A DNA stretch of 64,000 nt from Clostridia bacterium (GTDB taxonomy: Bacteria > Bacillota > Clostridia > Oscillospirales > CAG-272): assembly GCA_017387685.1 (NCBI GenBank), contig JAFOEU010000055.1, positions 89,989-153,988 on the forward strand, in the 5' to 3' direction. The notes beneath the pieces were generated by a model, which worked only from the letters and a program-made list of their open reading frames with translations, was not told the origin of the DNA and did no database searches. This document shows positions 1,057 through 53,147 of the stretch, piece after piece. Made by a program: the position numbers and the translations under genes. How positions within the stretch are numbered: position 1 is the first letter of the stretch; each line of letters begins with the position of its first letter.

Positions 1057-1098
1057 AAAACAACAAAACTCACCGCTTTGGCGGTGAGTTTTGTTGTT
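1057..1098 (+). terminator. intrinsic terminator of the PFOR gene
   Basis: An 18-bp stem AAAACAACAAAACTCACCGC / GCGGTGAGTTTTGTTGTT with loop TTTG, 6 nt after the stop codon. Confidence 0.8.
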
Positions 1099-1314
1099 AG
1101 TTGCTAGTTGCTAGTTACTAGTTGCTGGTTGAAGGTGAATTTCCGAGCCGACGGCTCGGAAATTTTTGATTTTATCAAAAACAGCGGAAAAGTTTTTGAG
1201 GTTTCTTAAGGAACTTTTTTCAAAAAGTTCCTTAAGTCGAGCTCCGCAGAGCTCGAAACTCCCTTTTGCGCTTCGAAGCGACGGCGCCCCGCCGGCGTTT
1301 CGGAAGGAGTAAAA
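1094..1314 (+). repeat. composite modular repeat: 6x TTGCTAG-type heptamers, AAGGTGAATTT junction hairpin, palindrome CTTAAGGAACTTTTTTCAAAAAGTTCCTTAAG, CCGCAG-loop hairpin and a conserved tail
   Basis: Heptamers lie at 1094-1135 and the junction hairpin at 1131-1167. The downstream modules recur in reverse orientation at 19198-19289, 25515-25656, 29104-29225 and 49300-49392. Confidence 0.85.
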
Positions 1315-1337
1315 CCACCGCTTTGGCGGTGGTTTTT
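1311..1337 (-). terminator. intrinsic terminator (usable on both strands) downstream of the AAA ATPase gene
   Basis: AAAACCACCGCTTTGGCGGTGGTTTTT. It has the same CACCGCTTTGGCGGTG core as the hairpin at 1071-1086. Confidence 0.7.
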
Positions 1338-5272: not shown

Positions 5273-5575
5273 GTGCAGAGTTAAGAGTGCAGAGTGCAGA
5301 GTTGAGGTGGATTTTCAAGCTCCGCTTGAAAATCATTGGTGCTTTAATTTTGTGCGGTGCTGATGCAATTTACTGCTGTGCTGAAATACAGAGAATAAAA
5401 TAAAAATCTCGGATATTTCGAAGCTTCGCTTCGGATATCCGAGATTTTTTAATTTGTTATGACTTTGGCTATGTGAAATTTAATCAGCACATCACAAAAT
5501 TATTAATATGGAATTTTCGCCACGGCGAAAATTTCCCTTCAACTCTGCACTCTGCACTCTTAACTCTGCACTTGA
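5273..5575. repeat. complete foldback element filling the serA / lipoprotein convergent spacer
   Basis: 5273-5305 is the exact reverse complement of 5539-5571 (33 bp of GTGCAGA-type heptamers). Junction hairpins lie at 5310-5335 and 5511-5535. A nested inverted repeat surrounds the central terminator. Confidence 0.9.
5402..5450. terminator. bidirectional intrinsic terminator
   Basis: AAAAATCTCGGATATTTCGAAGC-TTCG-CTTCGGATATCCGAGATTTTTT, with an A-run and a T-run flanking a long stem. Confidence 0.85.
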
Positions 5576-7153
5576 TCATTCCTCTTCCTCTTCGTCAACG
5601 TCGATAAAAATGACCTTTACCTGCGCGCTGCCGCGCTTGGTGACCTTGAGGGAGCGGTTGCGCGATACGGTGTAGGTCTTTCCGTCCGCCGTTACGCGCG
5701 CGGAGAAGCTGAAGCCGACCGAGGCAACGTGTCCGTTTGAATCGAAGTTTATATAGGCTTTGGCATCGTCGCAGGAGGTAACGCTGATCACGTCGGCATA
5801 AATTCCCGCGGCAAGCAGAGCTTCGCGTGCGAGCATTATTTTACCTTCTTGATTGATCGAAAAGGAAAGTCGTTCCGCCGTGTATTCCTCTATGCGGGCG
5901 AAAGCCCAAAAGGGAAGCATTGAACGGTCAAAGGGCGCGGTCAGAGTAGACTCGAGATTTTTTGCATTAAAGGTTGTGTCGACGAATATGCTTCCGCTAT
6001 TTATCTGCGAGAAGGCACGGCGGCGGTTGAAATGCGTTAAAACACGCGTTTTGCCCGAGCCGGTGTCAAACACTCTCTCAAATGTCGCTCCGATCTTTTT
6101 GGCGTATGCGTAATCGATTTTTTCACTCAAATGGCGTTCAGCCGTGCCGCCGATACGGATATCGTCGTTCTCCTGCAGCTCGAAAGCCTGATATCGCCCG
6201 AAAAACGAGTCGACGTCAGCAAGCGCGGCTTCATAAATCGTGAGCGCGGCGGAGTCGGGGATCAGAACGTATGAGGTCATCGCGGGGAGCGTGAGAGAGT
6301 TCTTTTCGTTAATGCCGCTCTGCTCGGTGCGCGAGGTAAGACGAAAAGACAAAACGTGATTGCCACCCCGCTCCACATCCGCCTCGAGAGATAACACCTT
6401 CTCCCTCATATGCGCCGCGGTGTCGGTGACGTAGAGAAATTCGGCTTTGGTGATCCTGAGCTCATATTTCTCGGTCAAGCCGAGCATTTTAGCGATCTCG
6501 CCAATACCCTCGGTGGTGATCTTATCAAATTTCAAGGTTATATTCTCGCTGTCGACTTCAACAGTCCCGTCCTCGAAGGCGGTCATGGGAAAATAATTTC
6601 CCGCCAGCTTGGAGAAGGACGAGATATCGTATCCTCCGAAGCGGTAGTTGCCGAATTTTCCGCCGTAACAGAGAAATCCGTCGATCAAGAAATATTCCTC
6701 ACTCTCGCCGTCCGATGTGCGCCTGAATGAGGCGTTTCCATCGCTTGTGAGAAGCTCGGAGAAGATTTCGTGGCGTGAGTTTACCCCGCCCTGAACGATC
6801 TCGGTCACGGTTTGTGTTTTTCGTGTACACGACGTGTATACCTCAGAGAATCTTTCCGATACCTCAAAGATCGTCTGTGCGGGAAGAGTTGCCATTACGT
6901 CCACAAGGGAGGTTTCCTCGGGCTCGGTATACTCTGGCTCGGTATACTCGGGCTCGGTTTCTATCGGCTCTGTCTTTGGAGGCTCGGTCACTTCTGTTTC
7001 GGGGGAAGTGGTTTCGGGAGCGAGGGTGGTTTCGGGCTCGGGGAGCTCCGTGATAGATGCGCTGATGACCTCGCCCTCATAGGGCGGCGTCTCGACCGCA
7101 CATGCAGACAAAAGCAATGAGCACGCGAGGACGAGCGGGATCAGGCGCTTCAT
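5576..7153 (-). CDS. lipoprotein of unknown function with a Thr/Glu/Pro-rich linker
   Basis: Signal peptide and lipobox MKRLIPLVLACSLLLSAC. Contains a TEPEYTEPEYTEPE repeat. The start overlaps the upstream gene by 4 nt. Confidence 0.7.
   Translation of the reverse strand: MKRLIPLVLACSLLLSACAVETPPYEGEVISASITELPEPETTLAPETTSPETEVTEPPKTEPIETEPEYTEPEYTEPEETSLVDVMATLPAQTIFEVSERFSEVYTSCTRKTQTVTEIVQGGVNSRHEIFSELLTSDGNASFRRTSDGESEEYFLIDGFLCYGGKFGNYRFGGYDISSFSKLAGNYFPMTAFEDGTVEVDSENITLKFDKITTEGIGEIAKMLGLTEKYELRITKAEFLYVTDTAAHMREKVLSLEADVERGGNHVLSFRLTSRTEQSGINEKNSLTLPAMTSYVLIPDSAALTIYEAALADVDSFFGRYQAFELQENDDIRIGGTAERHLSEKIDYAYAKKIGATFERVFDTGSGKTRVLTHFNRRRAFSQINSGSIFVDTTFNAKNLESTLTAPFDRSMLPFWAFARIEEYTAERLSFSINQEGKIMLAREALLAAGIYADVISVTSCDDAKAYINFDSNGHVASVGFSFSARVTADGKTYTVSRNRSLKVTKRGSAQVKVIFIDVDEEEEE
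6919..6960 (-). repeat. in-frame 15-bp tandem repeat encoding EPEYT units
   Basis: GGCTCGGTATACTCT GGCTCGGTATACTCG GGCTCGGTTTC on the + strand. Confidence 0.7.
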
Positions 7154-8344: not shown

Positions 8345-8402
8345 GCATAATCACGTTCCGCCCACGGAACACTTTTCGGGGGTTGCACCGCCTGCGGGCG
8401 GC

Positions 8403-8517
8403 GCGCGATATGCCTTCGGCACGATATATCCGCTTCGCGGATACGATATACCTGAAGGCACGATATATTTCGCAGAAGCGAAATGTTAAGGTAAATTTCC
8501 GCCAAGGCGGAAATTTT
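8403..8517 (+). repeat. repeat arm variant: ACGATATAT word + mini-hairpin units ending in TTAAGGTAAATTTCCGCC-AA-GGCGGAAATTTT
   Basis: The units are GCCTTCGGC, CCGCTTCGCGG, CCTGAAGGC and TTCGCAGAAGCGAA, each preceded by a CGATATA word. The junction hairpin lies at 8486-8517. Confidence 0.8.
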
Positions 8518-8538
8518 CCGATTTTATATCAAAAAAGG

Positions 8539-8607: not shown

Positions 8608-10263
8608 ATGAAAAAATATACCGTTGGAATAGATTTCGGAACGCTTTCGGGCAGAGCTGTGCTCGTTGACGTTATGACGGGCGAGGAGTGCGCAAGCGTC
8701 GTGATGGACTACCCTCACGCCGTCATCGACAGCATCCTTCCCGCGAGCGGTGAGGTGCTCCCGATCAATTGGGCACTCGAAGACCCGCGCGATTATCTCG
8801 CAGTTCTCGAATTTCTTTTCCCCGCGCTCTGCCGCGAGGCGGGCATCGAAAAGGAGCAGATCGTCGGTGTCGGCATCGACTTCACCTGCTGTACGATCCT
8901 TCCGATCAAAAAAGACGGCACCGCGCTCGTTTCTCTGCCCGAGTTTGAGCAGAATAAGCACGCCTACGTCAAGCTCTGGAAGCATCACGCCTCCCAGCCG
9001 TGGGCGGACCGTATGAACGAGGTTGCCGCAGAGCGAGGCGAGACCTTCGTCAATTATTTTGGCGGTAAGATATCGAGCGAATGGCTCTTCCCGAAGCTTC
9101 TCCAAACCGCAAAGGAAGCCCCCGAGGTCATAGAGGCGGCTGATTACTATATCGAGGCGGGAGATTGGCTCAATTTCTTGCTCACCGGCGTGCAGAAGCG
9201 CGGATATCTTTTCGCGTCCTACAAGGCGGAGTATCTGCCGGACGTCGGATACCCCTCCGACGAATATCTCGCGGCGGTCGATCCCGAGCTACCCGAGCTC
9301 GCGCACCGTCTGCTTGACGCCCCCATCGCGCAGATGGGCGAGTGCGTCGGTCGCGTTACCAAAGAGGCGGCTGAAAGATTCGGTCTTGCCGAGGGTACTG
9401 CCGTTGCCGCGTCGATCCCCGATGCCCACGTTGCCGCCCCCGCTGTTGGACTGACCAAGCCCGGCGATATTTACGGCATTTTCGGCACTTCCAATTGCTA
9501 TTTTACACTTGCTGATATTTACAGAGATATTGGCGGAATCTGCGGATACGTTCCCGACGGTCTTATGCCGGGTTACTTCGGCGTTGAAGCGGGACTTTGC
9601 GCCGTAGGCGACCATTTTGCGTGGGTTGTGGACAATCTTGCAACCGCAGAGGACAAGGCGGAAGCCGAGCAGCTCGGAATTCCCGTCATTCAGCTCCTCG
9701 TCCGCCGCGCGGCAAAGAAAAAGCCGGGCGAAACCGGACTTCTCGCCCTCGACTGGTGGAACGGAAACCGAAACATCCTCGTTGACGGCAATCTGACGGG
9801 ACTTTTGATCGGTATGACGCTCCGCACCAAGACCGATGATATCCTCCGCGCCCTTATTGAGGCGACCGCGTTTGCGACCAAGGTCATCATCGACCGTATG
9901 GAGGAATGCGGAATGAAGATCGACAGCCTCATCGCCGCGGGCGGAATCGCGCGCAAGGACGCATTTACGATGCAGGTCTACTCCGACGTCCTCGGCATCC
10001 CGATCAATGTAATTTCCTCAAAACAGGCTCCCGCACTCGGCAGTGCTATCTACGCCGCCGTTGCCGCAGGCGAATACCCCGACATTTTTGCCGCCTCCGA
10101 CGCTATGAAGAGCCCGATCTACAGCAGTTATACCCCCAATAAAGAGAACGAAAAGGTCTACTCCGCACTCTACCGCGAATACCTCACCCTTCACGACTAT
10201 TTCGGTCGCGGCGGGAACGACGTTATGAAGCGTTTGCTTAAGATCTCGCAGGGGGAGATTTAA
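8608..10263 (+). CDS. araB: FGGY-family sugar kinase, most likely L-ribulokinase
   Basis: The N-terminus GIDFGTLSGRAVLV and the 551-aa length match ribulokinases as I remember them. Confidence 0.75.
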   Translation: MKKYTVGIDFGTLSGRAVLVDVMTGEECASVVMDYPHAVIDSILPASGEVLPINWALEDPRDYLAVLEFLFPALCREAGIEKEQIVGVGIDFTCCTILPIKKDGTALVSLPEFEQNKHAYVKLWKHHASQPWADRMNEVAAERGETFVNYFGGKISSEWLFPKLLQTAKEAPEVIEAADYYIEAGDWLNFLLTGVQKRGYLFASYKAEYLPDVGYPSDEYLAAVDPELPELAHRLLDAPIAQMGECVGRVTKEAAERFGLAEGTAVAASIPDAHVAAPAVGLTKPGDIYGIFGTSNCYFTLADIYRDIGGICGYVPDGLMPGYFGVEAGLCAVGDHFAWVVDNLATAEDKAEAEQLGIPVIQLLVRRAAKKKPGETGLLALDWWNGNRNILVDGNLTGLLIGMTLRTKTDDILRALIEATAFATKVIIDRMEECGMKIDSLIAAGGIARKDAFTMQVYSDVLGIPINVISSKQAPALGSAIYAAVAAGEYPDIFAASDAMKSPIYSSYTPNKENEKVYSALYREYLTLHDYFGRGGNDVMKRLLKISQGEI

Positions 10264-10325
10264 GTGGCTAGTGACTAGTGGCTAGTGACTAGTGAAGGTG
10301 AATTTTCGCCAAAGGCGAAAATTTT
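10264..10325 (+). repeat. repeat arm: GTGGCTA/GTGACTA heptamers + AAGGTGAATTTTCGCC-AAA-GGCGAAAATTTT
   Basis: The arm starts on the nucleotide after the araB stop. It has five heptamers and then the junction hairpin. Confidence 0.85.
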
Positions 10326-10422
10326 CCGAATTAATTAATATACAAGTGCGAACATAGGCGCACTTGTATAGTACGAGTTACTATTTAACAAACGCATACA
10401 CCACCTTTCAAGGAGGATCATA

Positions 10423-10782
10423 ATGAAAAAACTCCCCCGCGAATCGGGCGTCGTGGTCGCTTGCGATTACAAAAAGATGCTTGCAATTCTGGATCATATC
10501 TTTTTCGATATATTTGACTCCAACGACAATTGCCTCGCCGCACTTTTGGGTGCTTGGTCACTCGACGTTATGTCCGACGGTGCGCCCGCCGATCTCGGTG
10601 ACTATGAAATCTGGCTCGAGTGCGAGTCGGAAAACAAGGATGCAGACGTCCGCACAAAAACTCTCGCCTTCCTCAACCGTTTCATTGAAACCTTCGGCTT
10701 CGATGAACTCAACAGCACCGTCGAAGAAGTGAAAAAACTCCCCGACACTCAAATCAAAATCCTGACCGAAAATATCAAATAA
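10423..10782 (+). CDS. hypothetical acidic 119-aa protein
   Basis: Strong RBS AAGGAGG. I recognise no motif. The gene is bracketed by two repeat arms. Confidence 0.55.
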   Translation: MKKLPRESGVVVACDYKKMLAILDHIFFDIFDSNDNCLAALLGAWSLDVMSDGAPADLGDYEIWLECESENKDADVRTKTLAFLNRFIETFGFDELNSTVEEVKKLPDTQIKILTENIK

Positions 10783-10786
10783 AATA

Positions 10787-10861
10787 CTTTTCGCCCACGG
10801 CGAAAAGTTACCATACCTTTTCCCTTTTCCCTTTTCCCTTTAACCTTTCCCCTCTTTCCCC
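10787..10861 (-). repeat. repeat arm (reverse orientation): hairpin CTTTTCGCC-CAC-GGCGAAAAG + GTTACC + CCTTTTC heptamers
   Basis: Heptamers occupy 10816-10861. The arm ends 10 nt before the ATG at 10872. Confidence 0.8.
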
Positions 10862-12734: not shown

Positions 12735-13583
12735 ATGCATATTAATATCAATATCGGTACAAGTGAAAAGGATTTCAACACCGAAAAGAAGAAAAAGCTC
12801 ACACCCGAGCAGAAGACGAAGATCAAAAATGCGGTAAAATCGGGTTATGGAAAGCTCCGCGTTGCCGCGGGCAGACTTTATTCGACCGTTGAGGACAAGG
12901 TCTTTGACGGCAGATGCTTCCTCTCCGAGCTGAAAGAGGGGATCCTTGAAGACGTTGCTGCCGTCCGTGAGCGAGACCCCGCGGCGAGAAGCGACATTGA
13001 GGTCATGCTTCTCTATTCGGGCGTTCACGCGATGCTCGCATACCGCGTGGCGCATAAGCTTTACGTCAATGAAAAATTTCTCCCCGCGAGAGCGGTTTCA
13101 CAGCTTGCGCGATTCCTGACGGGAATTGAGATCCACCCCGGCGCGCAGATCGGTAAGCGACTTATGATCGACCACGGCTCGGGCGTCGTAATCGGCGAGA
13201 CCTGCATCATCGGCGACGATTGCACGATCTATCAGGGCGTAACCCTCGGCGGTACGGGTAAGGACACGGGCAAGCGACACCCCACACTCGGCAATAATGT
13301 AATGGTCGGCTCGGGCGCAAAGGTCCTCGGACCGTTCAAGATCGGCGACGGCGCGAAGATCGCGGCGGGCGCGGTGGTACTCAAAGAGATCCCCGCGGGC
13401 GCGACTGCAGTCGGCATCCCCGCGAAGGTAGTGCGCCGCAAGGGCGAACGCGTTGAGGAACAGCTCGACCAGATCCACATCCCCGACCCCGTATCGCAGC
13501 AACTCGGAGAGCTTGAGGCGAAGATAGCTGAACTTAAGAGCGAGATCGAGGAGCTCAAGAAGGGCGAGGAAAGTGCAGAGTGA
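12735..13583 (+). CDS. cysE: serine O-acetyltransferase with N- and C-terminal extensions
   Basis: RERDPAARS and hexapeptide repeats (IHPGAQIGKRLMIDHGSGVVIGETCIIGDDCTIYQGVTLGG). The RBS is AAGGAG. The last codons and the stop lie inside the heptamer repeat. Confidence 0.88.
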   Translation: MHININIGTSEKDFNTEKKKKLTPEQKTKIKNAVKSGYGKLRVAAGRLYSTVEDKVFDGRCFLSELKEGILEDVAAVRERDPAARSDIEVMLLYSGVHAMLAYRVAHKLYVNEKFLPARAVSQLARFLTGIEIHPGAQIGKRLMIDHGSGVVIGETCIIGDDCTIYQGVTLGGTGKDTGKRHPTLGNNVMVGSGAKVLGPFKIGDGAKIAAGAVVLKEIPAGATAVGIPAKVVRRKGERVEEQLDQIHIPDPVSQQLGELEAKIAELKSEIEELKKGEESAE

Positions 13584-13741
13584 AGAGTGCAGAATGCAGA
13601 GTTAAGGAGAATTTCCTTGCCTGCGGCTGCGGAAATTTTCAATTCTGATATAAACTCAACTCAAACTTTATAATAAAATTATTTTTCGCTTCAGCGAAAA
13701 ATTACCGTAACTCTGCACTCTGCACTCTGCATTCTGCACTG
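13573..13741. repeat. complete foldback element (GTGCAGA arms) between cysE and the GDPD gene
   Basis: Left heptamers lie at 13573-13607 with a hairpin to 13640. The right hairpin is at 13681-13703 and CTCTGCA heptamers at 13711-13741. Confidence 0.85.
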
Positions 13742-23025: not shown

Positions 23026-23150
23026 TCGGCTTCGCCGAGTGATAATCTCGCTTCGCGAGAGTGATAATCCGCCTGCGGCGGAGTGATAATTTCCGCTGCG
23101 CGGAAAATAAAGGTGAATTTTCTCGCCTTCGGCTCAAAAATTATTAAATT
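23026..23150 (+). repeat. repeat arm: 3x AGTGATAAT + mini-hairpin units, then AATAAAGGTGAATTTT and a degenerate hairpin
   Basis: TCGGCTTCGCCGA GTGATAAT CTCGCTTCGCGAG AGTGATAAT CCGCCTGCGGCGG AGTGATAAT TTCCGCTGCGCGGAA. Confidence 0.8.
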
Positions 23151-23230
23151 ACGGGAATTAAGTAATATTTTTAGTCTCTTTATACTGCGCCGTCCCCTAC
23201 AAGCTTTGGGTGAAGATTTAATTGAAATAT

Positions 23231-25450: not shown

Positions 25451-25514
25451 TAAAAACGTTATGATAAGTAAAAAAGAAATGAAGGAGCAAAAATCTCCCG
25501 CAAGGGGAGATTTT

Positions 25515-25738
25515 ACTCCTTCCGAACAGCCGCCGGGGCGGCGTCTGTTCGAAGCGCGGAGGGAGTTTCGCCGTCTGCGGACGGCGACTTAAGGCTCTGC
25601 CTTAAGAAACCGCAAGTTTTTGAAAAAACTTGACTAAAACTTTCCCGCTATCTTTATTTCGCCGCAGGCGAATTATCACTCTCGCGAAGCGAGATTATAA
25701 CTCTGCCGTAGGCAGATTATCACTCGCGCTCTGCGCGA
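25515..25738 (-). repeat. composite repeat (reverse orientation) ending in ATTATCACT + mini-hairpin units
   Basis: ACTCCTTCCGAA...TTCGAAGCGC..GGGAGTTTCG-CCGTCTGCGGACGG-CGACTTAAGG...AAAACTTTCCCGCT, then the array at 25657-25738. The mazF ORF ends inside the array. Confidence 0.8.
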
Positions 25739-26156
25739 CAACCCCCGCCTCCGCCACAGCCGCAGGCTGTACCTCCACTCCCTCCCCATACGCTCCTGCG
25801 GGAGGCAGCACTATACCAAAGCTCACCGCGATCGCGTTGTTGACTCTATCCATCATCTCATCGTCGAGGTGTCCCATCCGCTCGCGCAGGCGGCGTTTGT
25901 CGAGCGTTCTGATCTGCTCGAGCAGTATCACCGAATCCCTCGCCAGTCCCGCGCGCTCGGCGTATATGTCGATATGTGTGGGCAGGCGCGTTTTGCTCAT
26001 TCGCGATGTAATTGCCGCCGCTATCACGGTCGGACTGTATTTATTCCCAACGTCGTTTTGTATTATCAGCACGGGCCGAAGTCCGCCCTGCTCCGAGCCG
26101 ACGACGGGCGAAAGATCTGCATAATATATATCCCCTCTGCGTATCTGCGAGTTCAT
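25695..26156 (-). CDS. mazF: MazF/EndoA-type endoribonuclease toxin with a ~35-aa C-terminal extension
   Basis: [44 protein letters not shown]...LPTHIDI...[17 protein letters not shown] is very close to B. subtilis EndoA as I remember it. The tail [37 protein letters not shown] has no counterpart there. Confidence 0.85.
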
Positions 26157-26339: not shown

Positions 26340-27149
26340 ATGAATTACTGGACACAATCAAAGGATAATATATACGTTGCCGCTCATCGCGGATGGAGCA
26401 CCGTTTACCCCGAAAATACTCTCCTCGCATTTAAAAAGGCTATCGAGATCGGTGTTGACCAGATCGAGACCGACGTTCGCATCACCCGCGACGGCGAGCT
26501 TGTCTGCATCCACGATGCCGCCGTCGACCGCACCACAAACGGCACGGGTAAGGTCTGCGACAAGACTCTCGCCGAGCTCAAAACTCTCGACGCAGGCTCT
26601 TGGAAGGGCGCGGAATTCGCGGGCGAGCGCATCCCCACCTTCATCGAGTTTATGGAGCTCGTCAAGGATCATCCCACGATGACCCTCGATATTGAGCTTA
26701 AGGAATACCCCGTTGACGGACGTGACGAGATCGCATACGAGGTCTGCGACCGCGTGCTTAAGATCATAGATGATTACGGCTTTACCGACCGCGTGGTCAT
26801 CAACACCTTCAACGGCAAGCTCCACGAATATATGGAAGAGAAGTACGGCTCGAAATACCGCCGCCACATCTACTACCCCCTCACCCACATGGGCAAGGTC
26901 AAGCGCGACCCCTACACCTCCTCGGCGTACTGCTGCTGTATGTTCCGCGCACTTTACAGCCCGATCAATATGGCGACAAAGGAGGAATTCGACCGTATGA
27001 TCGCTCTCGGAGTCCGTCCTTGGGCACCCGCGGGAGTCAAGACTCAGGAGCACGTTGACGAGGTCATCGCCTGCGGCGGCGAGCTTATCACTTGCAATAA
27101 TCCCGATGAGATCCTTGCATTTTTGAGAAACAGAGGAAAGCATAATTAA
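26340..27149 (+). CDS. glycerophosphodiester phosphodiesterase (second copy)
   Basis: ORF 25869..27149 is trimmed to the ATG at 26340, which has a GGAGG RBS and the promoter TTGACT-17-TATAAT (about 26284-26312). Contains the motifs AAHRGWSTVYPENT and ETDVRITRDGELVCIHD. Confidence 0.85.
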   Translation: MNYWTQSKDNIYVAAHRGWSTVYPENTLLAFKKAIEIGVDQIETDVRITRDGELVCIHDAAVDRTTNGTGKVCDKTLAELKTLDAGSWKGAEFAGERIPTFIEFMELVKDHPTMTLDIELKEYPVDGRDEIAYEVCDRVLKIIDDYGFTDRVVINTFNGKLHEYMEEKYGSKYRRHIYYPLTHMGKVKRDPYTSSAYCCCMFRALYSPINMATKEEFDRMIALGVRPWAPAGVKTQEHVDEVIACGGELITCNNPDEILAFLRNRGKHN

Positions 27150-27208
27150 GTGCAGAGTTCAGAGTGCAGAATGCAGAGTTAAGGTAAATTTTCGCGTTGC
27201 GAAAATTA
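27150..27208 (+). repeat. repeat arm: GTGCAGA heptamers + TTAAGGTAAATTTTCGC-GTT-GCGAAAATT
   Basis: The arm starts on the nucleotide after the stop codon. The AATTTTGTGCGGTGCTGAT module also seen at 5350 follows it. Confidence 0.85.
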
Positions 27209-27275
27209 TTTCTGCGATAATTTTGTGCGGTGCTGATAAGATTTTGTGCTGAATTGAAATTGGAAGAGTAAATTG

Positions 27276-27323
27276 AAAAACTCGGATATTTTGAAGCTGG
27301 GCTTCTCGATATCCGAGTTTCTT
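27276..27323. terminator. bidirectional terminator
   Basis: AAAAACTCGGATATTTTGAAGC...CTCGATATCCGAGTTTCTT. It has the same CTCGGATAT stem as the terminators at 5402 and 45224. Confidence 0.75.
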
Positions 27324-27329
27324 ATTTAT

Positions 27330-29090
27330 TTAGGGAAGGACTATCATAAGTCCGTTCGCGACTGCACGGAGTGAGCCGGCGGAGGGGCTGTTTTCGGTTA
27401 CGAGCTCTCCCTTTTCGTTTTTGAGGATGAAGGTACTCGATCCGCCGCCGTCGAGGTTGATCGCGTTGACGCAATCGAGGGTGGACATGATGTACGCGAG
27501 GTCGGCGAGAGACGCGCCGTTCGAGATCTCGGGCTGTCTGCCGTCAACGACGATGAGCACGATCGTTCCGTCCGAGGTCACGCCCGCCGCGGTACGGGGA
27601 TGGCGGGTGTCGGAGAATTCTGTTCCGATCGAGAGGTTGTCAGTGCCGCCGTTTTTGAGGATTATGTGCGAGCCGCCGACAGCGGTGAAGAGCTTGTCCT
27701 TATAGTTCGCGTATTCGGCAGAAGTACCCATAACGGCGTTGCCGTCGTTTGTGATTCCGAACCAGGGGCGTTCACCGGTGCCGCTGATAAACACGCCGTC
27801 CTTGATGCAAAGACCGCGCATCACATTCGTTCCGCCCATATCGAAGAAGTCGGCGTTGACTCCCGCGATAACGTTTTTGCCGTTCGAGATCGCGGAGGTG
27901 AGCTGTTTCTTCATATTTGCAACTGTACCCTTCTTGTCCGCGCTGTCGGAGGGCATCGTGGTCAGGATAGTCGCCGCGCCCGGCTTTATGCTGATAGCAT
28001 AAGCGCGAACGTTTGCGGAATTTTTATCGGTATAAACGATCTCGGTGTAGATGACGCCGGGTGCGACCTCGACCGAGGTTCTTGTTGCCTCGCGGAGCTT
28101 ATTCGTTCCGTTTGGAACGTGGAGTCCCGAGAGGTTTCGGCTGCCTGAAAGCTCGATCTTATATTCGCCCGAAACGCCTGTGGGCATATATTCATAGAGG
28201 AATCTTTGCGCGCCTGCCGCGCCTGCAGAATCGCCCTTGAAGTCGATAAAGATATTACCGTCCGCTTCTGTGATAAAATAGCGGTTTGTAGCGAAATACT
28301 TCTGATCGCCGTGGCTTCCGTCGGGCTTGCCACAGCCGTAGAATATCGCGGGACCGCCCTTATAGTTCGCAATCGGAACGGTTTTGAGGTTGACTCCGCA
28401 GACCTTGCTGATGCCCTGAATGATCAGATCGATATTCTTGCCGTTCTTTGTTGCATCGACGATCGAGTATTCGGAGATCTCGCGCTCGCCGAGCTGGAGG
28501 GAGGTTATCGGATAGCCATTTGTATAAAGCTGATTTTGACCTGCCTTGAGCTCTGCCGCCGTGCCCTCAGACGTGACCTTGCCGTTCTTGTCCTCGGTGT
28601 AGCCGAAGATATCCTTGAGGAAGTTTTCAACTGCGGTAACGGTCGATTCGGGCGAGCCGCCGCAGATGACGATCACGTTTTCGCTGACGATCTTATAGGT
28701 CCAATCGTAGTATGTAAGCGACTCGCGTGCCGCAACGGAATCGGCGCGGTTGGTTGCACCGACAAGTATTTCGTATTCGTTCGGAACGACCTCGGCACCC
28801 TTTTTGGTGAAGTCGGTCGTCATCGGGAGCTTGAAGCCCATCGCGCTTTCAAGACCGCGAGAGAGGAGCTGTATTGCCGCCACCTCGCTTGAATCCGAAT
28901 CGTCGGGTCGGACGAGTTTATAATCCGCCGTCAGGGAAAATGAGGGAGATTCGGTTTCGGGAGCGTCGGTGATAGCTTCGGTTATCTGTTCTGTTGTGAT
29001 CTCACCTTCGCCGCCCGTGCAGGATACAGCACCGAGCAGGATGCAGGCGAGCATAATAAGAGAAAGTAATCTCAAAAATTTATTTTTCAT
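27330..29090 (-). CDS. lipoprotein with a C-terminal phosphodiester glycosidase (NAGPA/DUF2233-like) domain
   Basis: Lipobox LLGAVSC. The C-terminal region GVNADFFDMGG...RTAAGVTSDGTIVLIVVDGRQ...NLDGGGSSTF is present. Confidence 0.7.
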   Translation of the reverse strand: MKNKFLRLLSLIMLACILLGAVSCTGGEGEITTEQITEAITDAPETESPSFSLTADYKLVRPDDSDSSEVAAIQLLSRGLESAMGFKLPMTTDFTKKGAEVVPNEYEILVGATNRADSVAARESLTYYDWTYKIVSENVIVICGGSPESTVTAVENFLKDIFGYTEDKNGKVTSEGTAAELKAGQNQLYTNGYPITSLQLGEREISEYSIVDATKNGKNIDLIIQGISKVCGVNLKTVPIANYKGGPAIFYGCGKPDGSHGDQKYFATNRYFITEADGNIFIDFKGDSAGAAGAQRFLYEYMPTGVSGEYKIELSGSRNLSGLHVPNGTNKLREATRTSVEVAPGVIYTEIVYTDKNSANVRAYAISIKPGAATILTTMPSDSADKKGTVANMKKQLTSAISNGKNVIAGVNADFFDMGGTNVMRGLCIKDGVFISGTGERPWFGITNDGNAVMGTSAEYANYKDKLFTAVGGSHIILKNGGTDNLSIGTEFSDTRHPRTAAGVTSDGTIVLIVVDGRQPEISNGASLADLAYIMSTLDCVNAINLDGGGSSTFILKNEKGELVTENSPSAGSLRAVANGLMIVLP

Positions 29091-34430: not shown

Positions 34431-34645
34431 AGGGGATAATAGAGATAAGTTGCTCCCGAAGGGAGCAGTGATAATCTCGCTTCGCGAGAGTGATAATCCG
34501 CCTTTCGGCGGAGTGATAATTTGCCTGCGGCAAAGTAAAGGTAAATTTCCTCGCTTTGCTCGGAAATTATCGAATGATTTATTTACTTTCAGCGAAGCTG
34601 AAATTATCACTCTCGCGAAGCGAGATCATCACTGCCCCTCGGGCA
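34431..34645. repeat. foldback element with AGTGATAAT + mini-hairpin arms (about 4 left units, 2 right units)
   Basis: The left arm is 34431-34535. The junction hairpin AAGGTAAATTTCCTCGC-TTTG-CTCGGAAATT is at 34536-34568. The right arm TTTCAGCGAAGCTGAAATTATCACTCTCGCGAAGCGAGATCATCACT is at 34587-34645. Confidence 0.8.
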
Positions 34646-34697
34646 CCTTATTCGGCGTGCGGTTTTTACATATTAAATTCACGAAAGGCATTTGATT

Positions 34698-41293: not shown

Positions 41294-42547
41294 ATGTTTA
41301 CCTATATTATTAAAAGACTCAAAAAAGGCGGACTTGCCACCTTTGGCGCATTCTTTTTCGCCGCGTTGATGACCTTTTCGCTCTGCGGACTCAGCGCCGC
41401 GGGCGAGGCAGAGATCAAAAAATACGAGGAAGCCTACAATACCCTCCCCGTCACGATGACGGTCACGAGCCTGACGGGCATCCGCCGCGACGGTCTTGAG
41501 ATCCCCTCTTGGGGCGTGAATGTCTTCAGCGATCCGTCAATTAAGAATCTCGTCAAGGACGTTGAGATCAAAATGACTCTTTCGGCGGGCGCGGACGGCG
41601 TGAAAGCCGCAAATACGGGCTTCGGTGCGACCGATGATGCGGAATTTGCGCTGAACGTAAAAAAGCTGATCGGATTGACCTCCCCCGCGCTCGATGGCGA
41701 CCTCGGCGAGGACGGCGTGACCTATTACGGCAATTATGATGCTTCAATGTTTCGCGTCGAAGCCGACAACACCTACGTTTCGGGCTCGGCGGGTGAGCAA
41801 AGAGAGCCGCTTTACATCGTTATTCCGCTCGAAATCTACGAAAAAGGCTGTGCGGCGGTCAATATGACCTTTTCCTACGATGATGCATTCGATTCCTTCC
41901 CGCGCTCAACCGTCACACGCGATTTTTACGTGATGGGTACGCACACGCTCGGCGACGGCATCTATTATTGCCCCTACAACACTCTCGTTCGAATAATGAA
42001 GGACATCGGAATGCCTCGTTACGCGGATTCGCTGACGGTCACGGTCGCTGATAACCACAAGCTCGACAAGGTCAAGGAGCACACCGCCGGGTGGTTTACC
42101 AAGCCGAGCCTCACCGCCAAGCGCGTTCCTTGGAATTATTCCTACTATTATTACTACCCCTTCGCGCTTGACATTGACGAATCCGCGCTCATCCGCGCGG
42201 GCGAGGTGATGAAAACGAATATTATGATCAATAAGCTCGGCACGGCTCTCGTCTTTGCGCTCTCTGCGGGCGCGGGATTCCTCGTCGGTTTCTTGATCGT
42301 CAACCGCCGAAAGCGCGAGATCATGCTGATGCGCACGATGGGCATGCCCGACCGAAGCGTTTTCCGCGATCTTTTCCTCGAGCAAGGACTTTGCTCCCTC
42401 GCGGGCGGACTCTTCGGCGGAGCCTTCTTCCTCTGGCATCCGCCGCTCAGGATAGCGCTCTTTTTGCTCCTCAATTACGCAGGACTTGCGCTGTCGCTTG
42501 TGATCTTCTTGAAGAAGAATCTCCTCACTGCGATAAAAGAAGACTGA
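41294..42547 (+). CDS. second FtsX-like ABC permease
   Basis: ORF 41111..42547 is trimmed to the ATG at 41294, which has a GAGG RBS. The C-terminus has REIMLMRTMGMP followed by TM helices. Confidence 0.7.
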   Translation: MFTYIIKRLKKGGLATFGAFFFAALMTFSLCGLSAAGEAEIKKYEEAYNTLPVTMTVTSLTGIRRDGLEIPSWGVNVFSDPSIKNLVKDVEIKMTLSAGADGVKAANTGFGATDDAEFALNVKKLIGLTSPALDGDLGEDGVTYYGNYDASMFRVEADNTYVSGSAGEQREPLYIVIPLEIYEKGCAAVNMTFSYDDAFDSFPRSTVTRDFYVMGTHTLGDGIYYCPYNTLVRIMKDIGMPRYADSLTVTVADNHKLDKVKEHTAGWFTKPSLTAKRVPWNYSYYYYYPFALDIDESALIRAGEVMKTNIMINKLGTALVFALSAGAGFLVGFLIVNRRKREIMLMRTMGMPDRSVFRDLFLEQGLCSLAGGLFGGAFFLWHPPLRIALFLLLNYAGLALSLVIFLKKNLLTAIKED

Positions 42548-42548
42548 C

Positions 42549-43058
42549 CGAGATCGGGTTAATCTCGCTTCGCTCGAGTTATAATCCGCCTTCGGCGGAG
42601 TGATAATCGCCTTGCGGCGAGTGATAATTTGCCTTCGGCAAAATGAAGGTAGATTTTCGCCGAGGCGAAAATCTTTGATTTAAATAATAAGCGATGTTAC
42701 AAATAAGCCTTCCCCGGCGGGGAAGGTGGCAGCCCTTGCGGCTGCCGGATGAGGGGATCGCCGTCTGTACCGCAGACACGACAAGCGTATATGCATTTTC
42801 ATATAATTGAAAATTTCCGCCTCGGCGGAAATTCACCTTTATTTTTCGCGCAGCGAAAATTATCATTCTCGCGAAGCGAGATTATCATTTTGCCGAAGGC
42901 AGATTATCACTCGCCGCAAGGCGATTATCACTCCGCCGAAGGCGGATTATCACTCGAGCAAAGCGAGATTATCACTCCGCCGAAGGCGGATTATCACTCG
43001 AGCGAAGCGAGATTATCACTCCGCCGAAGGCGGACCATCACTCGAGCGTCAGCGAGAT
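42549..43058. repeat. large foldback element inside the ABC transporter operon (3 left units, structured core, 9 right units)
   Basis: Left words start at 42577, 42599 and 42620, with the junction hairpin at 42645-42673. The right junction hairpin is at 42809-42841. Right words ATTATCAYT start at 42859, 42881, 42903, 42924, 42946, 42968, 42990, 43012 and 43034. Confidence 0.9.
42686..42790 (+). ncRNA. conserved structured motif, copy 1 (function and functional strand unknown)
   Basis: H1 is CCTTCCCC-GGC-GGGGAAGG (42708-42726). H2 is GGCAGCC-CTTGC-GGCTGCC (42728-42746). GGATGAGGGGATCGCC follows. H3 is GTCTG-TACCG-CAGAC (42763-42777). Confidence 0.4.
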
Positions 43059-43074
43059 AGAAAGGACTTCAAAA

Positions 43075-43743
43075 ATGAGCATTCAACTAAAAAACGTATC
43101 ATACAGCTACCGCGGCAAGTACCAGACCGTTCGCGCGGTGAATTCGGTCAGCTTTGATTTTGACGAGGGCAAGGTCTACGCCGTAATCGGCAAATCCGGT
43201 TCGGGAAAGACCACTCTCCTCTCGCTTATGGCGGGGCTTGATCTGCCGACCGAGGGTGATGTGATCGTTGACGGAAAATCGACCCGCAAATGGGATCGAA
43301 ACCGTATGCGCCGCGAGGCTGTCTCGGTAATTTATCAGAATTATAACCTTTTTCCGCTTTTGAGCGTAATTGAAAATATCCGCTACCCGCTTGATCTGCG
43401 CAAGGTAAAGCGCGCGAAAGCCGACGAGATTGCACGCCGTATGCGCGAGCGCGTCGAGCTTTCCGAGTCATACGACGACCGCCTCCCCGCGCATCTTTCG
43501 GGCGGTGAGCAACAGCGCGTCGCAATCGCACGCTCCCTCGCGCAGGGCAGTAAGATCATACTCGCAGACGAGCCGACGGGTAATCTTGACACCAAAAACA
43601 CCGAAAATATCGTAAATATCCTCAAAAAGCTTGCCCACGAGGACGGTGCGACCGTTATTATCGTCACACACGATCTCGCCGTCGCCGAAAAAGCCGACGT
43701 GGTTCTCCGTATGAGCGACGGTGAACTTGTTGACAAAGCTTGA
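43075..43743 (+). CDS. ABC transporter ATP-binding protein (MacB/LolD-type)
   Basis: Walker A GKSGSGKTT, signature LSGGEQQRVAIARSL, Walker B IILADEPT. Confidence 0.9.
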   Translation: MSIQLKNVSYSYRGKYQTVRAVNSVSFDFDEGKVYAVIGKSGSGKTTLLSLMAGLDLPTEGDVIVDGKSTRKWDRNRMRREAVSVIYQNYNLFPLLSVIENIRYPLDLRKVKRAKADEIARRMRERVELSESYDDRLPAHLSGGEQQRVAIARSLAQGSKIILADEPTGNLDTKNTENIVNILKKLAHEDGATVIIVTHDLAVAEKADVVLRMSDGELVDKA

Positions 43744-46359: not shown

Positions 46360-46364
46360 TTAAA

Positions 46365-46432
46365 GTTACTAGTTGCTAGTTATTAGTTACTAGTTAAAGG
46401 TAAATTTCCGCCCCGATGGGGCGGAAATTTTT
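46365..46432 (+). repeat. repeat arm: GTTRCTA heptamers + TTAAAGGTAAATTTCCGCCCC-GAT-GGGGCGGAAATTTTT
   Basis: The arm begins 5 nt after the rbr stop. It matches the reverse-oriented arm at 48087-48153 at about 42 of 48 positions. Confidence 0.85.
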
Positions 46433-46439
46433 GATTTTA

Positions 46440-46469
46440 TTGACAATTACCTCTTTTTTATGGTATAAT
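46440..46469 (+). promoter_or_regulatory. sigma-A type promoter
   Basis: TTGACA, an 18-nt spacer, then TGG-TATAAT. Confidence 0.6.
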
Positions 46470-47012: not shown

Positions 47013-48088
47013 GATTCATATTCCCTCAAAACGGCGACTGCATAAATGCAAATGACGGCTTACCGCTCAAAGTACTCGTTGAAGCACCTGCCGATGGCGA
47101 TATTTACGTCGGCGGCGTGAAAGCCGAATTTTCGGACGGCGTGTGGAGTACAACCGTGCCGATTTCCGCATATAAAACCACTCTCACAGCCGAAAACAGA
47201 AAAAACGGCGATAACTGCGCCGTCACTCTGCTGAAATTTGCCGATCCCGTGGGCAAGTTCCGCCTCTCATCCGATGATAACATCCTCTTTTTGCAGGATA
47301 TTACGAAAAATCAGGATAAATACACCTCGATTTTCGATAACCCCTACCTCGCGCTTTACAAAAAAGCGCACGATCTCTACGGCGCGTGCATTCATCTCAA
47401 TCTGTTTTACGAATATATCCCCGACGAAAAATATTTCGCCGCCCATCCCGATTATTTCAATCTCTCGATGATGACGGACAAATTCAAGTCGGAATTCGAG
47501 GCGAATTCGGATTGGCTCAAGCTCGCATTCCACTCAAATGCCGAATTCCCCGATAAGCCGTATAAATTCGCGACCGCAGAGCAGATCACCGAGGATTTTC
47601 TCAAGATTCGCCGCGAGATCGTTCGCTTCGCGGGGGAGAGCTCGACGACGAACTCGACCACCGTTCATTTCGGTGCGGCGAACCGCGAGGTCGTCCGCGC
47701 ACTCCACGCCCTCGGTCTGCGCTCGCTGACGGGGTATTTCAGACGCAATGCAAAGGGCGAACCGAGCGTTTCCTACTATTTTGAGGACGAAAGGCTTGAA
47801 CATATCGGCTCGCGCGACTTCTGGTACGATGAGAGCGAGGATATGATCTTCGCGCAGATCGATCTTGTGCTCAATGAAAAGACCTACTCCGACGTGATGG
47901 AAGCCCTCCCGAGGATCGCGGACGATCCGCACCGCGGCGGTTTCATCTCGCTGATGATCCACGAGCAGTATTTCCACCCCGACTACCGCCGCCACCTCCC
48001 CGATTTCGAGGCACGCGTGCTTGATTCTTGTGCATTCTTGCATAAGAGGGGATACATTGGCGAGCATATATCAAATATTACAAAATAA
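47009..48088 (+). CDS. hypothetical 359-aa protein
   Basis: It overlaps the upstream gene by ATGA. I recognise no motif with confidence. Confidence 0.5.
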   Translation: MRFIFPQNGDCINANDGLPLKVLVEAPADGDIYVGGVKAEFSDGVWSTTVPISAYKTTLTAENRKNGDNCAVTLLKFADPVGKFRLSSDDNILFLQDITKNQDKYTSIFDNPYLALYKKAHDLYGACIHLNLFYEYIPDEKYFAAHPDYFNLSMMTDKFKSEFEANSDWLKLAFHSNAEFPDKPYKFATAEQITEDFLKIRREIVRFAGESSTTNSTTVHFGAANREVVRALHALGLRSLTGYFRRNAKGEPSVSYYFEDERLEHIGSRDFWYDESEDMIFAQIDLVLNEKTYSDVMEALPRIADDPHRGGFISLMIHEQYFHPDYRRHLPDFEARVLDSCAFLHKRGYIGEHISNITK

Positions 48089-48153
48089 AAAATCCGCTCG
48101 AAAATCGAGCGGATTTTTACCTTTAACCAGCAACTAACAACTAGCAACTAGCA
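48087..48153 (-). repeat. repeat arm (reverse orientation): hairpin/terminator AAAAAATCCGCTCG-AAAA-CGAGCGGATTTTT + ACCTTTAACC + AACTAGC-type heptamers
   Basis: The arm ends 7 nt before the stop of the minus-strand transporter gene. The hairpin also serves as terminator for the + gene ending at 48088. Confidence 0.85.
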
Positions 48154-48160
48154 ACTTTTA

Positions 48161-49299: not shown

Positions 49300-49455
49300 G
49301 ACAAGACAGAGTCGCAGCTTGCCGCAGGCAAGTGTGAACTTCTTGAAAAAGTTCGATCAAAACTTACCGCTGCTGTTGTCTTTTATTTGATTGAAAATTT
49401 CCGAGCAAAGCGAGGAAATTCTCCTTAACTCTGCACTCTGCATTCTGCACTCTGT
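49300..49455 (-). repeat. composite repeat (reverse orientation) ending in CTCTGCA heptamers
   Basis: CTTGCCGCAGGCAAG...GAACTTCTTGAAAAAGTTC...AAAACTTACCGCTGCTGTTGTCTTTTATTTGATTGAAAATTTCCGAGC-AAAG-CGAGGAAATTCTCCTTAA, followed by the heptamers. Confidence 0.8.
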
Positions 49456-52357: not shown

Positions 52358-52588
52358 AGTATGACCTCCTTTGAGTGTTGAGATAATTGTATCACAAAAC
52401 GGAGGAAAATGCAATAGGGTAGGGGAAATATCTCGCGAAGCGAGAGTTATAATCTCGCTTACGCTCGAGTGATGATCCGCCTTGCGGCGGAGTGATAATC
52501 TCGCTTCGCTCGAGTGATAATTTGCCTGCGGCAAAGTTAAGGTGGATTTTCGCCGAGGCGAAAATCTCGATTTTTATTAAAATAATTT

Positions 52589-52695
52589 GCAAGTCTGTCA
52601 TATCTGCGGTACAGACTTCGATCTCCTCATCCACCACTGCCGTGGTCCCCCTTCCCCGCTGGGGAAGGCTGATTTTGAACATCGCTTATCATTTC
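52589..52695 (-). ncRNA. conserved structured motif, copy 3 (inverted relative to copies 1 and 2)
   Basis: The reverse complement reads GCCTTCCCC-AGC-GGGGAAGG, then GACCAC-GGCA-GTGGT, then GGATGAGGAGATCGAA, then GTCTGT...ACAGAC. H2 has a different sequence but still pairs. Confidence 0.4.
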
Positions 52696-52824
52696 TAAAC
52701 TTCGTTAAGTACGCTAATCATATCAAGAAAATGATAAAAACAAAATATATTTACAACTATTTTGCTAATTATGAGTAAGGAAATATAATTATCGAGTCTT
52801 TCTGCGGTGCTATATCACTATAAC

Positions 52825-52916
52825 ATATGTTCGCAGTTGCTATATAAGCCTTCCCCAGCGGGGAAGGTGGCAGCCCTTGGGGCTGACGGATGAGGAGACC
52901 GAAGTCTGTACTAGAC
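52825..52916 (+). ncRNA. conserved structured motif, copy 2
   Basis: CCTTCCCC-AGC-GGGGAAGG (52849-52867), GGCAGCC-CTTGG-GGCTGAC, GGATGAGGAGACCGAA, GTCT-GTACT-AGAC. Confidence 0.4.
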
Positions 52917-53147
52917 GAGGAATAGAGGCACTTATTATTTAATAAATATCGAAGATTTTCGCCGAGGCGAAAATCAACCTTAACTTTGCCGCAGGCAAAT
53001 TATCACTCGAGCGAAGCGAGATTATCACTCCGCCGAAGGCGGATTATCACTCTCGCGTAAGCAAGATTATCACTCCGCCGCAAGGCGGATTATCACTCTC
53101 GCGTAAGCGAGATTATCACTCCGCCGCAAGGCGGATTATCACTAAAT

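Follow-up and report, generated by a model that had tools for sequence, protein, structure and literature searches.

A composite repeat of inverted hairpin arrays between the permease and ATPase genes of a clostridial ABC transporter operon, and its relation to Gut-1

The window analysed here is a 64-kb stretch of clostridial DNA that contains an ABC transporter operon with a hairpin-rich spacer between its second permease gene and its ATPase gene. The second FtsX-family permease (41294-42547, + strand) was assigned by Pfam PF02687, by its translation and by orthologues with 56-99% identity. Its C-terminus (...AIKED*) is intact and matches that of the orthologues, and its stop codon is the TGA at 42545-42547. 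Downstream, an intact gene (43075-43743, + strand) encodes an ABC ATPase of 222 aa (Pfam PF00005, ABC_tran, E = 4e-35), and the protein is identical on seven metagenome contigs. These limits of the spacer, the permease stop at 42545-42547 and the ATPase ATG at 43075, had been proposed by an earlier sequence-only reading and hold against the sequence and the Pfam FtsX and ABC_tran assignments. The RBS noticed in front of the ATPase is also present, one base to the right of its estimated position: it reads AGAAAGGA at 43059-43066 on the + strand, directly after the last hairpin of the spacer. This RBS is native to the ATPase gene, since an orthologous operon devoid of the element (L114) has one as well, and the element does not obstruct it. 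The view that the spacer is filled by one composite element of 510 bp was borne out, in an operon that was ancestrally tight (spacers of 35-134 nt in relatives). The element at 42560-43058 is flanked by GGGTTA on its left side and AGAAAGG on its right, and the open reading frames that overlap its arrays are repeat artefacts.

The element is composed of two inverted arms made of units in which a ATTATCACT word is joined to a 13-nt mini-hairpin. Four layers succeed each other inwards from either end: a terminal hairpin of the type ATCTCGCT-NNN-GCTCGAG, the array, an innermost hairpin (TTGCC-loop-GGCAA), and a junction with the consensus (A/G)(A/T)(A/G)AAGGTRRATTT that leads into a hairpin with AAATTT/AAATTT flanks, a variable G+C core and a T-rich tail. 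The left arm (42562-42645, + strand), delimited by inverted-repeat and repeat-family analysis, opens with the terminal hairpin ATCTCGCTTCGCTCGAG and contains three reverse-oriented words, AGTTATAAT at 42577 and AGTGATAAT at 42599 and 42620, which alternate with mini-hairpins of the forms CCGCC-TTC-GGCGG, CGCC-TTGC-GGCG and TTGCC-TTC-GGCAA. The three units initially counted in this arm agree with its three words; because there are four mini-hairpins, the count was slightly low. The arm gives way to the left junction (42646-42684, + strand; terminator scan and junction covariance model), which reads AAGGTAGATTT and continues into a hairpin at 42651-42674. This hairpin has a 10-bp stem with four G-C pairs and is directly followed by the T-run TTGATTTAAA, the sequence make-up of an intrinsic terminator. 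In the junction covariance model, whose training set included this site, it scores 62.3 bits (E = 6e-9). The right junction (42812-42859, minus strand; terminator scan) reads AATAAAGGTGAATTT on the minus strand, followed by a hairpin at 42833-42812 and by TTTCAATT; it obtains 60.4 bits on the minus strand at 42795-42847 in the junction model and has an extra hairpin, TTTTCGCGCAGCGAAAA, at its side (42843-42859). Both of the terminator-like junction hairpins anticipated for the element, at 42651-42674 and 42812-42833, are therefore present.

The right arm (42859-43058, + strand) was resolved by Tandem Repeats Finder (TRF), a word scan and inverted-repeat analysis into nine units, each with a 9-nt word and a 12-14-nt hairpin. 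The words conform to ATTATCAYT, the ninth being ACCATCACT, and start at 42859, 42881, 42903, 42924, 42946, 42968, 42990, 43012 and 43034, with successive spacings of 22, 22, 21, 22, 22, 22, 22 and 22, positions that confirm nine units at a strict 21-22-bp period. The final hairpin ends at 43056 and is followed by AT at 43057-43058, and the terminal hairpin, CTCGAGCGTCAGCGAGAT, is of the same type as that of the left arm. In composition, the right arm is made up of the junction, an extra hairpin and unit 1, after which units 2-5 mirror the left arm; units 4-5, 6-7 and 8-9 are three tandem copies of a 44-bp dimer, two of which lie beyond the mirrored stretch. The suggestion that a dimer of about 44 bp is the real unit is right for units 4-9, because TRF favours the 44-bp period over the 22-bp one at 42859-43058 (scores of 277 vs 159), and does not extend to units 1-3, which carry other hairpins. 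Over 87 nt the two arms are 97% complementary, as expected for the terminal inverted repeats of a MITE. The ATTATCACT word occurs 26 times in the 64-kb window, counting both strands, against 0.29 occurrences expected from dinucleotide shuffles. The element is not an assembly artefact, since identical flank-repeat junctions recur in independent metagenome contigs.

The centre of the element contains a second interspersed repeat (42686-42790, minus strand), recognised from two more copies in the window and from metagenome matches. On the minus strand it reads ..GTCTGCGGTACAGAC-GGCGATCC-CCTCATCC-[GGCAGCC GCAAG GGCTGCC]-A-CCTTCCCC GCC GGGGAAGG-CTTATTTGT, and its general form is GATCC-CCTCATCC-[covarying hairpin]-CCTTCCCC-GCC-GGGGAAGG-CTTATTTGT. 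The two other copies both lie in a sister element described below (52600-52680 on the + strand and 52830-52900 on the minus strand). An exact-pattern scan placed this repeat at 120 or more metagenome loci, many of them from human gut, and it is also found on two viral contigs of IMG/VR; its copies often form inverted pairs with two alternative middle hairpins. It matched no Rfam family, and literature searches by sequence string did not retrieve it. In the present element it is either cargo or a nested insertion. The centre also contains a sigma-70-like promoter match directed toward the ATPase, ACGACA-18 nt-TATAAT (42778-42807, + strand), which agrees with the consensus at 10 of 12 positions. 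This promoter-like site is conserved in a second strain (L006) and is absent from the corresponding place of the sister copy (52900-52950). On the + strand, the right junction and the hairpin next to it are also weakly terminator-like, and could impede a transcript that started there toward the ATPase.

The constraint acting on the units was addressed with inter-word segments drawn from 56 units (27 distinct) of the window and of two related MAGs. Almost all of these segments form perfect 5-bp stems, in which an invariant C-G pair closes loops that, on the ATTATCACT strand, are GNRA tetraloops or GNA triloops (GAA > GCA > AAA, GTA). Among 18 distinct 22-nt units, 91% of cells were paired vs 67% after shuffling, double (compensatory) changes numbered 22 vs 8.8 in shuffles, and the observed covariation score was matched by none of 500 shuffles. 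The word is thus kept as sequence and the segment between words as structure. The junction hairpin shows compensatory changes in four of its seven pairs. A T-rich tail of at least four T, counted on fixed alignment columns, is located on the inward-reading strand in 15 of 23 arms vs 4 of 23 on the other strand, and the asymmetry between G-U and A-C pairs, taken as a test for the functional strand, offered few informative cells. If the whole spacer were carried on one RNA, its predicted fold would reach -298 kcal/mol (z = -22), and the minimum-energy structure would be an arm-arm duplex of about 110 bp. The initial image of independent, stacked hairpins was consequently not upheld by the prediction.

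A strongly conserved word combined with covarying stems might also be expected of a binding platform. According to this possibility, the arrays would be bound by an oligomeric RNA- or ssDNA-binding protein, following the logic of HutP or TRAP, that controls termination at the junction, which would turn each arm into a conditional terminator or insulator. The arrangement of (G/U)AG(U) motifs, either 7 nt apart in arms made of heptamers or 22 nt apart with the hairpin as a compact spacer, directly upstream of a terminator-like hairpin, fits this proposal. However, words vary widely between array flavours (AGTGATAAT, ACGATATAT, AGTGCAG, GGGAAAA), no alternative antiterminator pairing is evident, around half of the arms face away from any incoming transcript, and no candidate protein was identified, so a platform of this kind is considered quite improbable.

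The element is not alone in the window, where five hairpin-array loci, this one included, adjoin unrelated genes. One of them is the sister composite element (52423-53143), which has four words in its left arm and seven in its right, together with two junctions and two convergent CCTCATCC modules; its arms are 86-89% identical to those at 42560-43058. A short copy without cargo (34460-34650) has 3 + 2 words and one junction hairpin. The remaining two are solo arms on the + strand: one with three words and a junction (23029-23159), lying upstream of a minus-strand gene, about 30 nt from its start, and one with three words (25660-25745) that overlaps a MazF/PemK open reading frame at its 3' end. 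The covariance model identified 18 junction modules in the 64 kb (E <= 0.02), three of them outside its training set. The junction with its hairpin is also joined to heptamer arrays (AGTGCAG, AGTGACT/AGTGGCT, AGTTACT/GTTGCTA and GGGAAAA) and to hairpin units of a third flavour, whose word is ACGATATAT. Altogether, about twenty arms populate the window, at a density of approximately one per 3.5 kb, and the arrays often begin 0-3 nt from a stop codon or end beside an RBS. A role of the arrays as suppliers of stop codons in all frames was discarded, as it fails for the AGTGCAG, GGGAAAA and ACGATATAT flavours. The 22-bp period corresponds to two helical turns, and the inverted arrays flank an AT-rich centre with a promoter-like site, features that would be compatible with iterons or centromere-like repeats of an origin or partition site. 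Against this, some twenty arms are spread among ordinary chromosomal genes over 64 kb, there are solo arms and heptamer variants, the segment between words is constrained as a hairpin and not as sequence, and no rep or par genes are nearby; an origin or partition function is thus extremely unlikely.

Regarding the origin of these copies, identity between arms is higher within an element (96.6% and 91%) than between elements (80-89%), arms at different loci and in different species have the terminal hairpin ATCTCGCTTCGCTCGAG in common, and the internal cargo segments are themselves repeated between loci. Like MITEs, these elements are small, non-coding, dispersed and polymorphic for presence and absence. 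The target-site duplication of MITEs was not seen: none was recognised at the ends of the element at 42560-43058, and the flanks of five other arm ends were neither shared nor duplicated. The window and the related loci revealed no transposase or other partner gene, and an ORF enclosed by arms in locus L066 has no Pfam match. The solo arms at 23029 and 25740 were also considered as the ends of a 2.7-kb composite transposon, an idea that was rejected because a class II aldolase and a DUF6809 gene, but no transposase, lie between them.

To determine whether the spacer is normally short, as the sequence-only reading had proposed to ask, orthologues of the second permease were traced to contigs at 86, 81, 80, 74 and 56% identity. 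In three of them the ATPase follows after a spacer of 35 nt (L117, 56%), 89 nt (L114, 86%) or 134 nt (L116, 74%), without the element. The other two (L115, 81%; L258, 80%) have no ATPase gene there, the permease being followed by a canonical TTGACA-17-TATAAT promoter and the next gene. The hairpin-array element is absent after the permease in all five (L117, L114, L116, L115 and L258), so its insertion is lineage-specific. The ancestral spacer cannot be reconstructed, because the closest empty site (L114, 86%) holds a different small palindrome, which is related to another repeat module of the window. The element is carried by strains whose ATPase is identical or whose permease is 99% identical, and their short-read contigs break inside it.

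The number of units appears to vary between strains and species, judging from the assembled sequences. The second strain (L006) has four units vs nine, in a short-read assembly whose repeats may have collapsed, and the orthologous site of the short copy in a sister species (L054, 7190-7404, about 87% DNA identity) has 4 + 3 vs 3 + 2 words. When 185,579 representative genomes were scanned for three GTGATAAT words spaced 20-22 bp apart, 107 stretches were retrieved, and true relatives of these arrays were only found in two species-level MAGs named 'Eubacteriales bacterium' (JAZRGT01 and JAZTXK01). The other stretches are unrelated tandem repeats of Bacteroidales, Gemmatales, Saprospiraceae and others. 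In IMG/VR viral contigs, the scan gave only coding or unrelated repeats and no arrays of the type seen in the window.

These comparisons bear directly on the proposal that the element serves to regulate this operon, which was not borne out: the element belongs to a dispersed family, of which the 64 kb contain five hairpin-array loci and 18 junction modules. A dedicated cis-regulatory attenuator that sets the ratio of permease to ATPase would be in keeping with the exact position of the element between stop codon and RBS and with an intact ATPase gene whose protein does not vary across the seven contigs. Nevertheless, the element is missing from all the orthologous operons examined, two related lineages even lack an ATPase gene at this position, and the family adjoins unrelated genes throughout the window, which makes a dedicated attenuator very unlikely.

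The element is probably a composite, non-coding, non-autonomous interspersed repeat, of the same kind as BOX, SPRITE, Correia and BIME elements, that entered the short spacer between permease and ATPase, and would be a passenger, selfish or neutral, that influences expression as a side effect, and not a regulator specific to the transporter. It would have arrived as one copied unit whose inverted terminal repeat measures about 87 nt, and its right arm would have grown later by tandem duplication of the 44-bp dimer. Concerning its effect on the operon, transcripts leaving the second permease face a terminator-like hairpin with TTGATTT, and attenuation or uncoupling of the ATPase is for this reason a reasonable expectation. 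Its presence probably leaves the two halves of the operon transcriptionally uncoupled. In the scheme that we propose, which also draws on the effects of BIME, BOX and SPRITE elements (PMC3049150), permease transcripts would largely stop at the terminator-like hairpin of the left junction or be cut within the element, read-through RNA would fold arm against arm into the duplex of about 110 bp and would probably be cut by RNase III, as occurs at Correia elements, and the ATPase would be expressed from the promoter-like site in the centre of the element or from processed read-through. Taken jointly, these three steps are slightly more likely than not.

A relationship with a described RNA family emerged from Rfam. 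Although the gathering-level search of the window returned no family, at a permissive threshold the GAGUGAUAAU strand of every arm matches Gut-1 (RF01706). Scores are 20-36 bits for the arms of the window and up to 38.4 bits in related loci, all of them below the gathering cut-off of 50 bits, with E-values from 3e-5 to 7e-3. Among these sub-threshold matches are one of 30.4 bits in the left arm (42576-42654) and two of 32.5 and 26.3 bits on the minus strand of the right arm. Matches to rsmX, MIR7533 and SorY were rejected as echoes of hairpins or inverted repeats. Gut-1 was described as a likely non-coding RNA, a candidate sRNA found exclusively in human-gut metagenomes, and the original paper inferred its expression as a small RNA (Weinberg et al. 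2010, PMC2864571). Model alignment, the unit table and covariation indicate that the arms contain the Gut-1 feature of at least three tandem short hairpins with a linker of the GUGA(A/U)AU type. In addition, the published seed alignment read with its flanks reveals an inverted partner array in four of five sequences, with the pattern (hairpin + GUGAUAUU)n ... (AAUAUCAC + hairpin)n, and on the far side of two seeds there is a heptamer array whose junction is UUAAGGU. The inverted partner array and the innermost UUGCC-UGC-GGCA hairpin are shared between Gut-1 seeds and the window (34512-34545 and 52513-52545). Gut-1 and the window arms therefore have a common architecture, as the seeds themselves show inverted partner arrays. 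The element is thus a divergent relative of Gut-1, and Gut-1 itself is probably an arm of such an element, because the seeds are inverted arrays with the same innermost hairpin. Literature searches with the strings ATTATCACT and CCTTCCCCGC and with Gut-1/RF01706 gave nothing apart from the 2010 paper.

The classification of Gut-1 as an sRNA raises the alternative that each arm is an sRNA gene of the Gut-1 type, transcribed inwards from promoters formed by word pairs, ended by the junction terminator and acting in trans, for instance as a sponge for an RNA-binding protein. Apart from the Rfam matches on the GAGUGAUAAU strand, neighbouring words on that strand do give promoter-like GTGATA-17/18-GATAAT matches, and the junction hairpin and T-run are located downstream on it. 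However, the heptamer arms share the junction and terminator without promoter-like pairs, many arrays begin at an upstream stop codon or abut an RBS and so leave no room for an outside promoter, the GNA/GNRA loops are on the opposite strand, the scores fall under the Rfam cut-off, and the density of arms in the window suits a repeat better than a gene. Independent sRNA genes are accordingly judged unlikely.

Considering the interspersed repeat favoured here, hairpin termini, the lack of target duplication and GNA loops of the DNA type give a hint that the family spreads by a hairpin- or ssDNA-based mechanism. A bolder version holds that the arms, and Gut-1 with them, are DNA substrates of an undescribed ssDNA-hairpin mobilisation system (HUH/Y1-like) in gut Clostridia. 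This stems from the fact that the C(GNA)G and GNRA loops on the ATTATCACT strand are hyperstable DNA mini-hairpin types, and it is a speculative proposal, unlikely to be correct. If it were true, the tandem arrays would be by-products, and the family as a whole would insulate transcription in both directions as mobile elements, tolerated or exploited by the host across the genome.

Irrespective of their mode of spread, small repeats of this sort, of which uncultured gut Clostridia appear to carry a dense and nested collection, can split operons, extend reading frames, as in the case of MazF, and break short-read assemblies. They consequently matter for the annotation of MAGs, for operon prediction and for the interpretation of metatranscriptomes. 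For the transporter itself, the insertion amounts to a natural experiment that asks how much uncoupling of its ATPase an ABC operon can tolerate.

Several known repeat systems share part of these properties. REP sequences are imperfectly palindromic, measure about 35 nt and bear a GTAG head; they alternate in orientation, are linked to RAYT transposases and generate no target-site duplication. Like REPs and BIMEs, the present arrays are clusters of extragenic palindromic hairpins, often placed in 3' UTRs or within operons, where such hairpins can make upstream mRNA more stable or attenuate the genes downstream; an attenuator role has been reported for BIME/REP (PMC3049150). The analogy with REP drawn at first is nonetheless loose, as the units here are 22 nt long, include a 9-nt linear word, are directly oriented in each arm and lack a GTAG head, and no RAYT was seen. 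BOX elements are modular non-coding repeats with variable tandem boxB units, and SPRITEs are terminator-like (Croucher et al. 2011, PMC3049150). The family described here resembles both in being modular, non-coding, highly folded, intergenic and often nested, with variable tandem units (PMC3049150). SPRITEs in particular are mobile, similar to rho-independent terminators and enriched where the 3' ends of convergent genes lie, and several arm pairs of the window are similarly placed (5272/5572). In BOX, however, the tandem units are internal and the terminal modules unique, whereas here the tandem units are terminal and the junction and terminator internal; BOX also makes target-site duplications, of which none is seen at these arms, and similarity in sequence to this element is not expected.

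Correia elements of Neisseria have paired terminal repeats that are cut by RNase III, and create promoters (PMC2649163, PMC10969869). As small inverted-repeat elements that insert within transcription units, they offer a model for the fate of the arm-arm duplex proposed here, but their simple terminal repeats are 26 bp long, they show a TA duplication and an IHF site, and they have neither tandem hairpin arrays nor internal terminators. In Geobacter uraniireducens the Chunjie MITE, whose copies vary in size, lies inside a phosphate-uptake operon (PMC2516098, summarised in PMC10969869), a case of a MITE within an operon that does not destroy it; as far as these accounts describe it, Chunjie differs in its conserved terminal inverted repeats and direct repeats (TSDs) and in having no hairpin-array arms. 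A further parallel is provided by Gut-1. The linker word is different and the arrays of the window are longer (up to nine units vs three in the model), and Gut-1 has not been described as the arm of an inverted, terminator-bearing interspersed repeat. In turn, both are made of tandem short hairpins with a purine-rich conserved linker (GUGAAAU or GUGAUAUU in Gut-1, GAGUGAUAAU here), and both come from gut habitats. An Rfam family that has had no function since 2010 thereby gains a genomic context, in which Gut-1 looks like the arm of a modular, terminator-carrying inverted repeat and not like a free-standing sRNA gene.

The boundary between permease 2 and the ABC ATPase, where the hairpin-array element lies (window 42560-43058), is a rearrangement hotspot. 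In the locus of the permease 2 orthologue of 86% identity (L114), the spacer is occupied by a 60-nt palindromic remnant (6262-6322) of a structured, roughly 170-nt repeat module. In two lineages with permeases of 81% and 80% identity (L115, 6255-6313; L258, 1815-1900), the ATPase gene is missing 3' of permease 2, which is succeeded instead by a canonical promoter (TTGACA-17-TATAAT) and then by the next gene. The ~170-nt module comprises several hairpins (..ACAGCGGAAAAG..CTTAAG..), adjoins arms, and is found at window 25480-25643 and 1170-1330 (reverse) and in two other fetched loci (L066, 2930-3100; L094, 1141-1300).

Eleven arms of the window (1093-1181, 5272-5351, 5495-5572, 10263-10340, 10769-10860, 13572-13654, 13664-13740, 27149-27224, 46364-46446, 48074-48156 and 49382-49455) possess a junction and terminator-like hairpin identical in kind to those of the element, with 4-6 tandem heptamers (AGTGCAG, AGTGACT/AGTGGCT, AGTTACT/GTTGCTA, GGGAAAA) in place of the 22-nt hairpin units. 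Several of them start at the upstream gene's stop codon or a few nucleotides away (0-3 nt at 5270, 5575, 10260, 27146, 46360 and 48160), and in the arm at 13572 this codon falls inside the array. In a third arm flavour, present at window 8395-8532 and in the sister species (L054, 6230-6410), the word ACGATATAT (opposite strand ATATCGTAT) alternates with short hairpins; as in other arms, the window copy is attached to the AAGGTAAATTT junction. An internal segment between arms, with copies at 5330-5450 and 27210-27330, consists of TTTTGTGCGGTGCTGAT ... and a large bidirectional terminator (AAAAATCTCGGATAT..ATATCCGAGATTTTT); even these native-looking terminators belong to the repeats.

A second repeat occupies the centre of the element (42686-42790) and recurs at 52600-52680 and 52830-52900 and in L118, L119 and L137-L256. 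Its layout is CCTCATCC-hairpin-CCTTCCCCGCNGGGGAAGG, the hairpin being either type 1 (ACCGC..GCGGT-CCC) or type 2 (GTCACGGC..GCCGTGCCA), and copies are frequently paired in inverted orientation, one having a type 1 and the other a type 2 hairpin. Pattern scans revealed that it is very common, in at least 120 metagenome stretches, many of human gut origin, as well as in two IMG/VR contigs; it corresponds to no Rfam family, and no literature record of it was found. GTAG-headed REP-like palindromes (GTAGGGGACGGCGCC..GGCGCCGTCCCCTAC), recurrent in these genomes and metagenome loci (L054, 5040-5480; window ~23180; L119, ~1950; several of L149-L253), are a further repeat family, possibly of RAYT type.

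Reading frames also run into the arrays. The 153-aa MazF/PemK toxin ORF at 25695-26156 (-), in which the Pfam domain covers residues 6-113, has a C-terminal tail that enters a hairpin-array arm and terminates within it, and its end seems to have been altered by arm insertion. Long spurious ORFs cross the arrays (42749-43060 (+), 42579-42866 (-), 25630-26124 (+)), because no stop codon occurs on the ATTATCACT strand, in contrast to its complement, where each word contains TGA TAA; gene callers may annotate these ORFs as hypothetical proteins.

Unrelated phyla have their own tandem arrays containing GTGATAAT, with a period of 20-22 bp: Candidatus Onthomorpha (L007, L025, L029, L034, L035, L087, L109), Prevotella (L014, L043) and Gemmatales (L011, L013, L020 and others). 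The palindromic unit GTGATAATGGTATTATCAC, present in Bacteroidales, is one example, and these arrays may be analogous elements. In the heptamer arms of the window, UAG or GAG is found at 7-nt intervals, a spacing shared with HutP binding sites.
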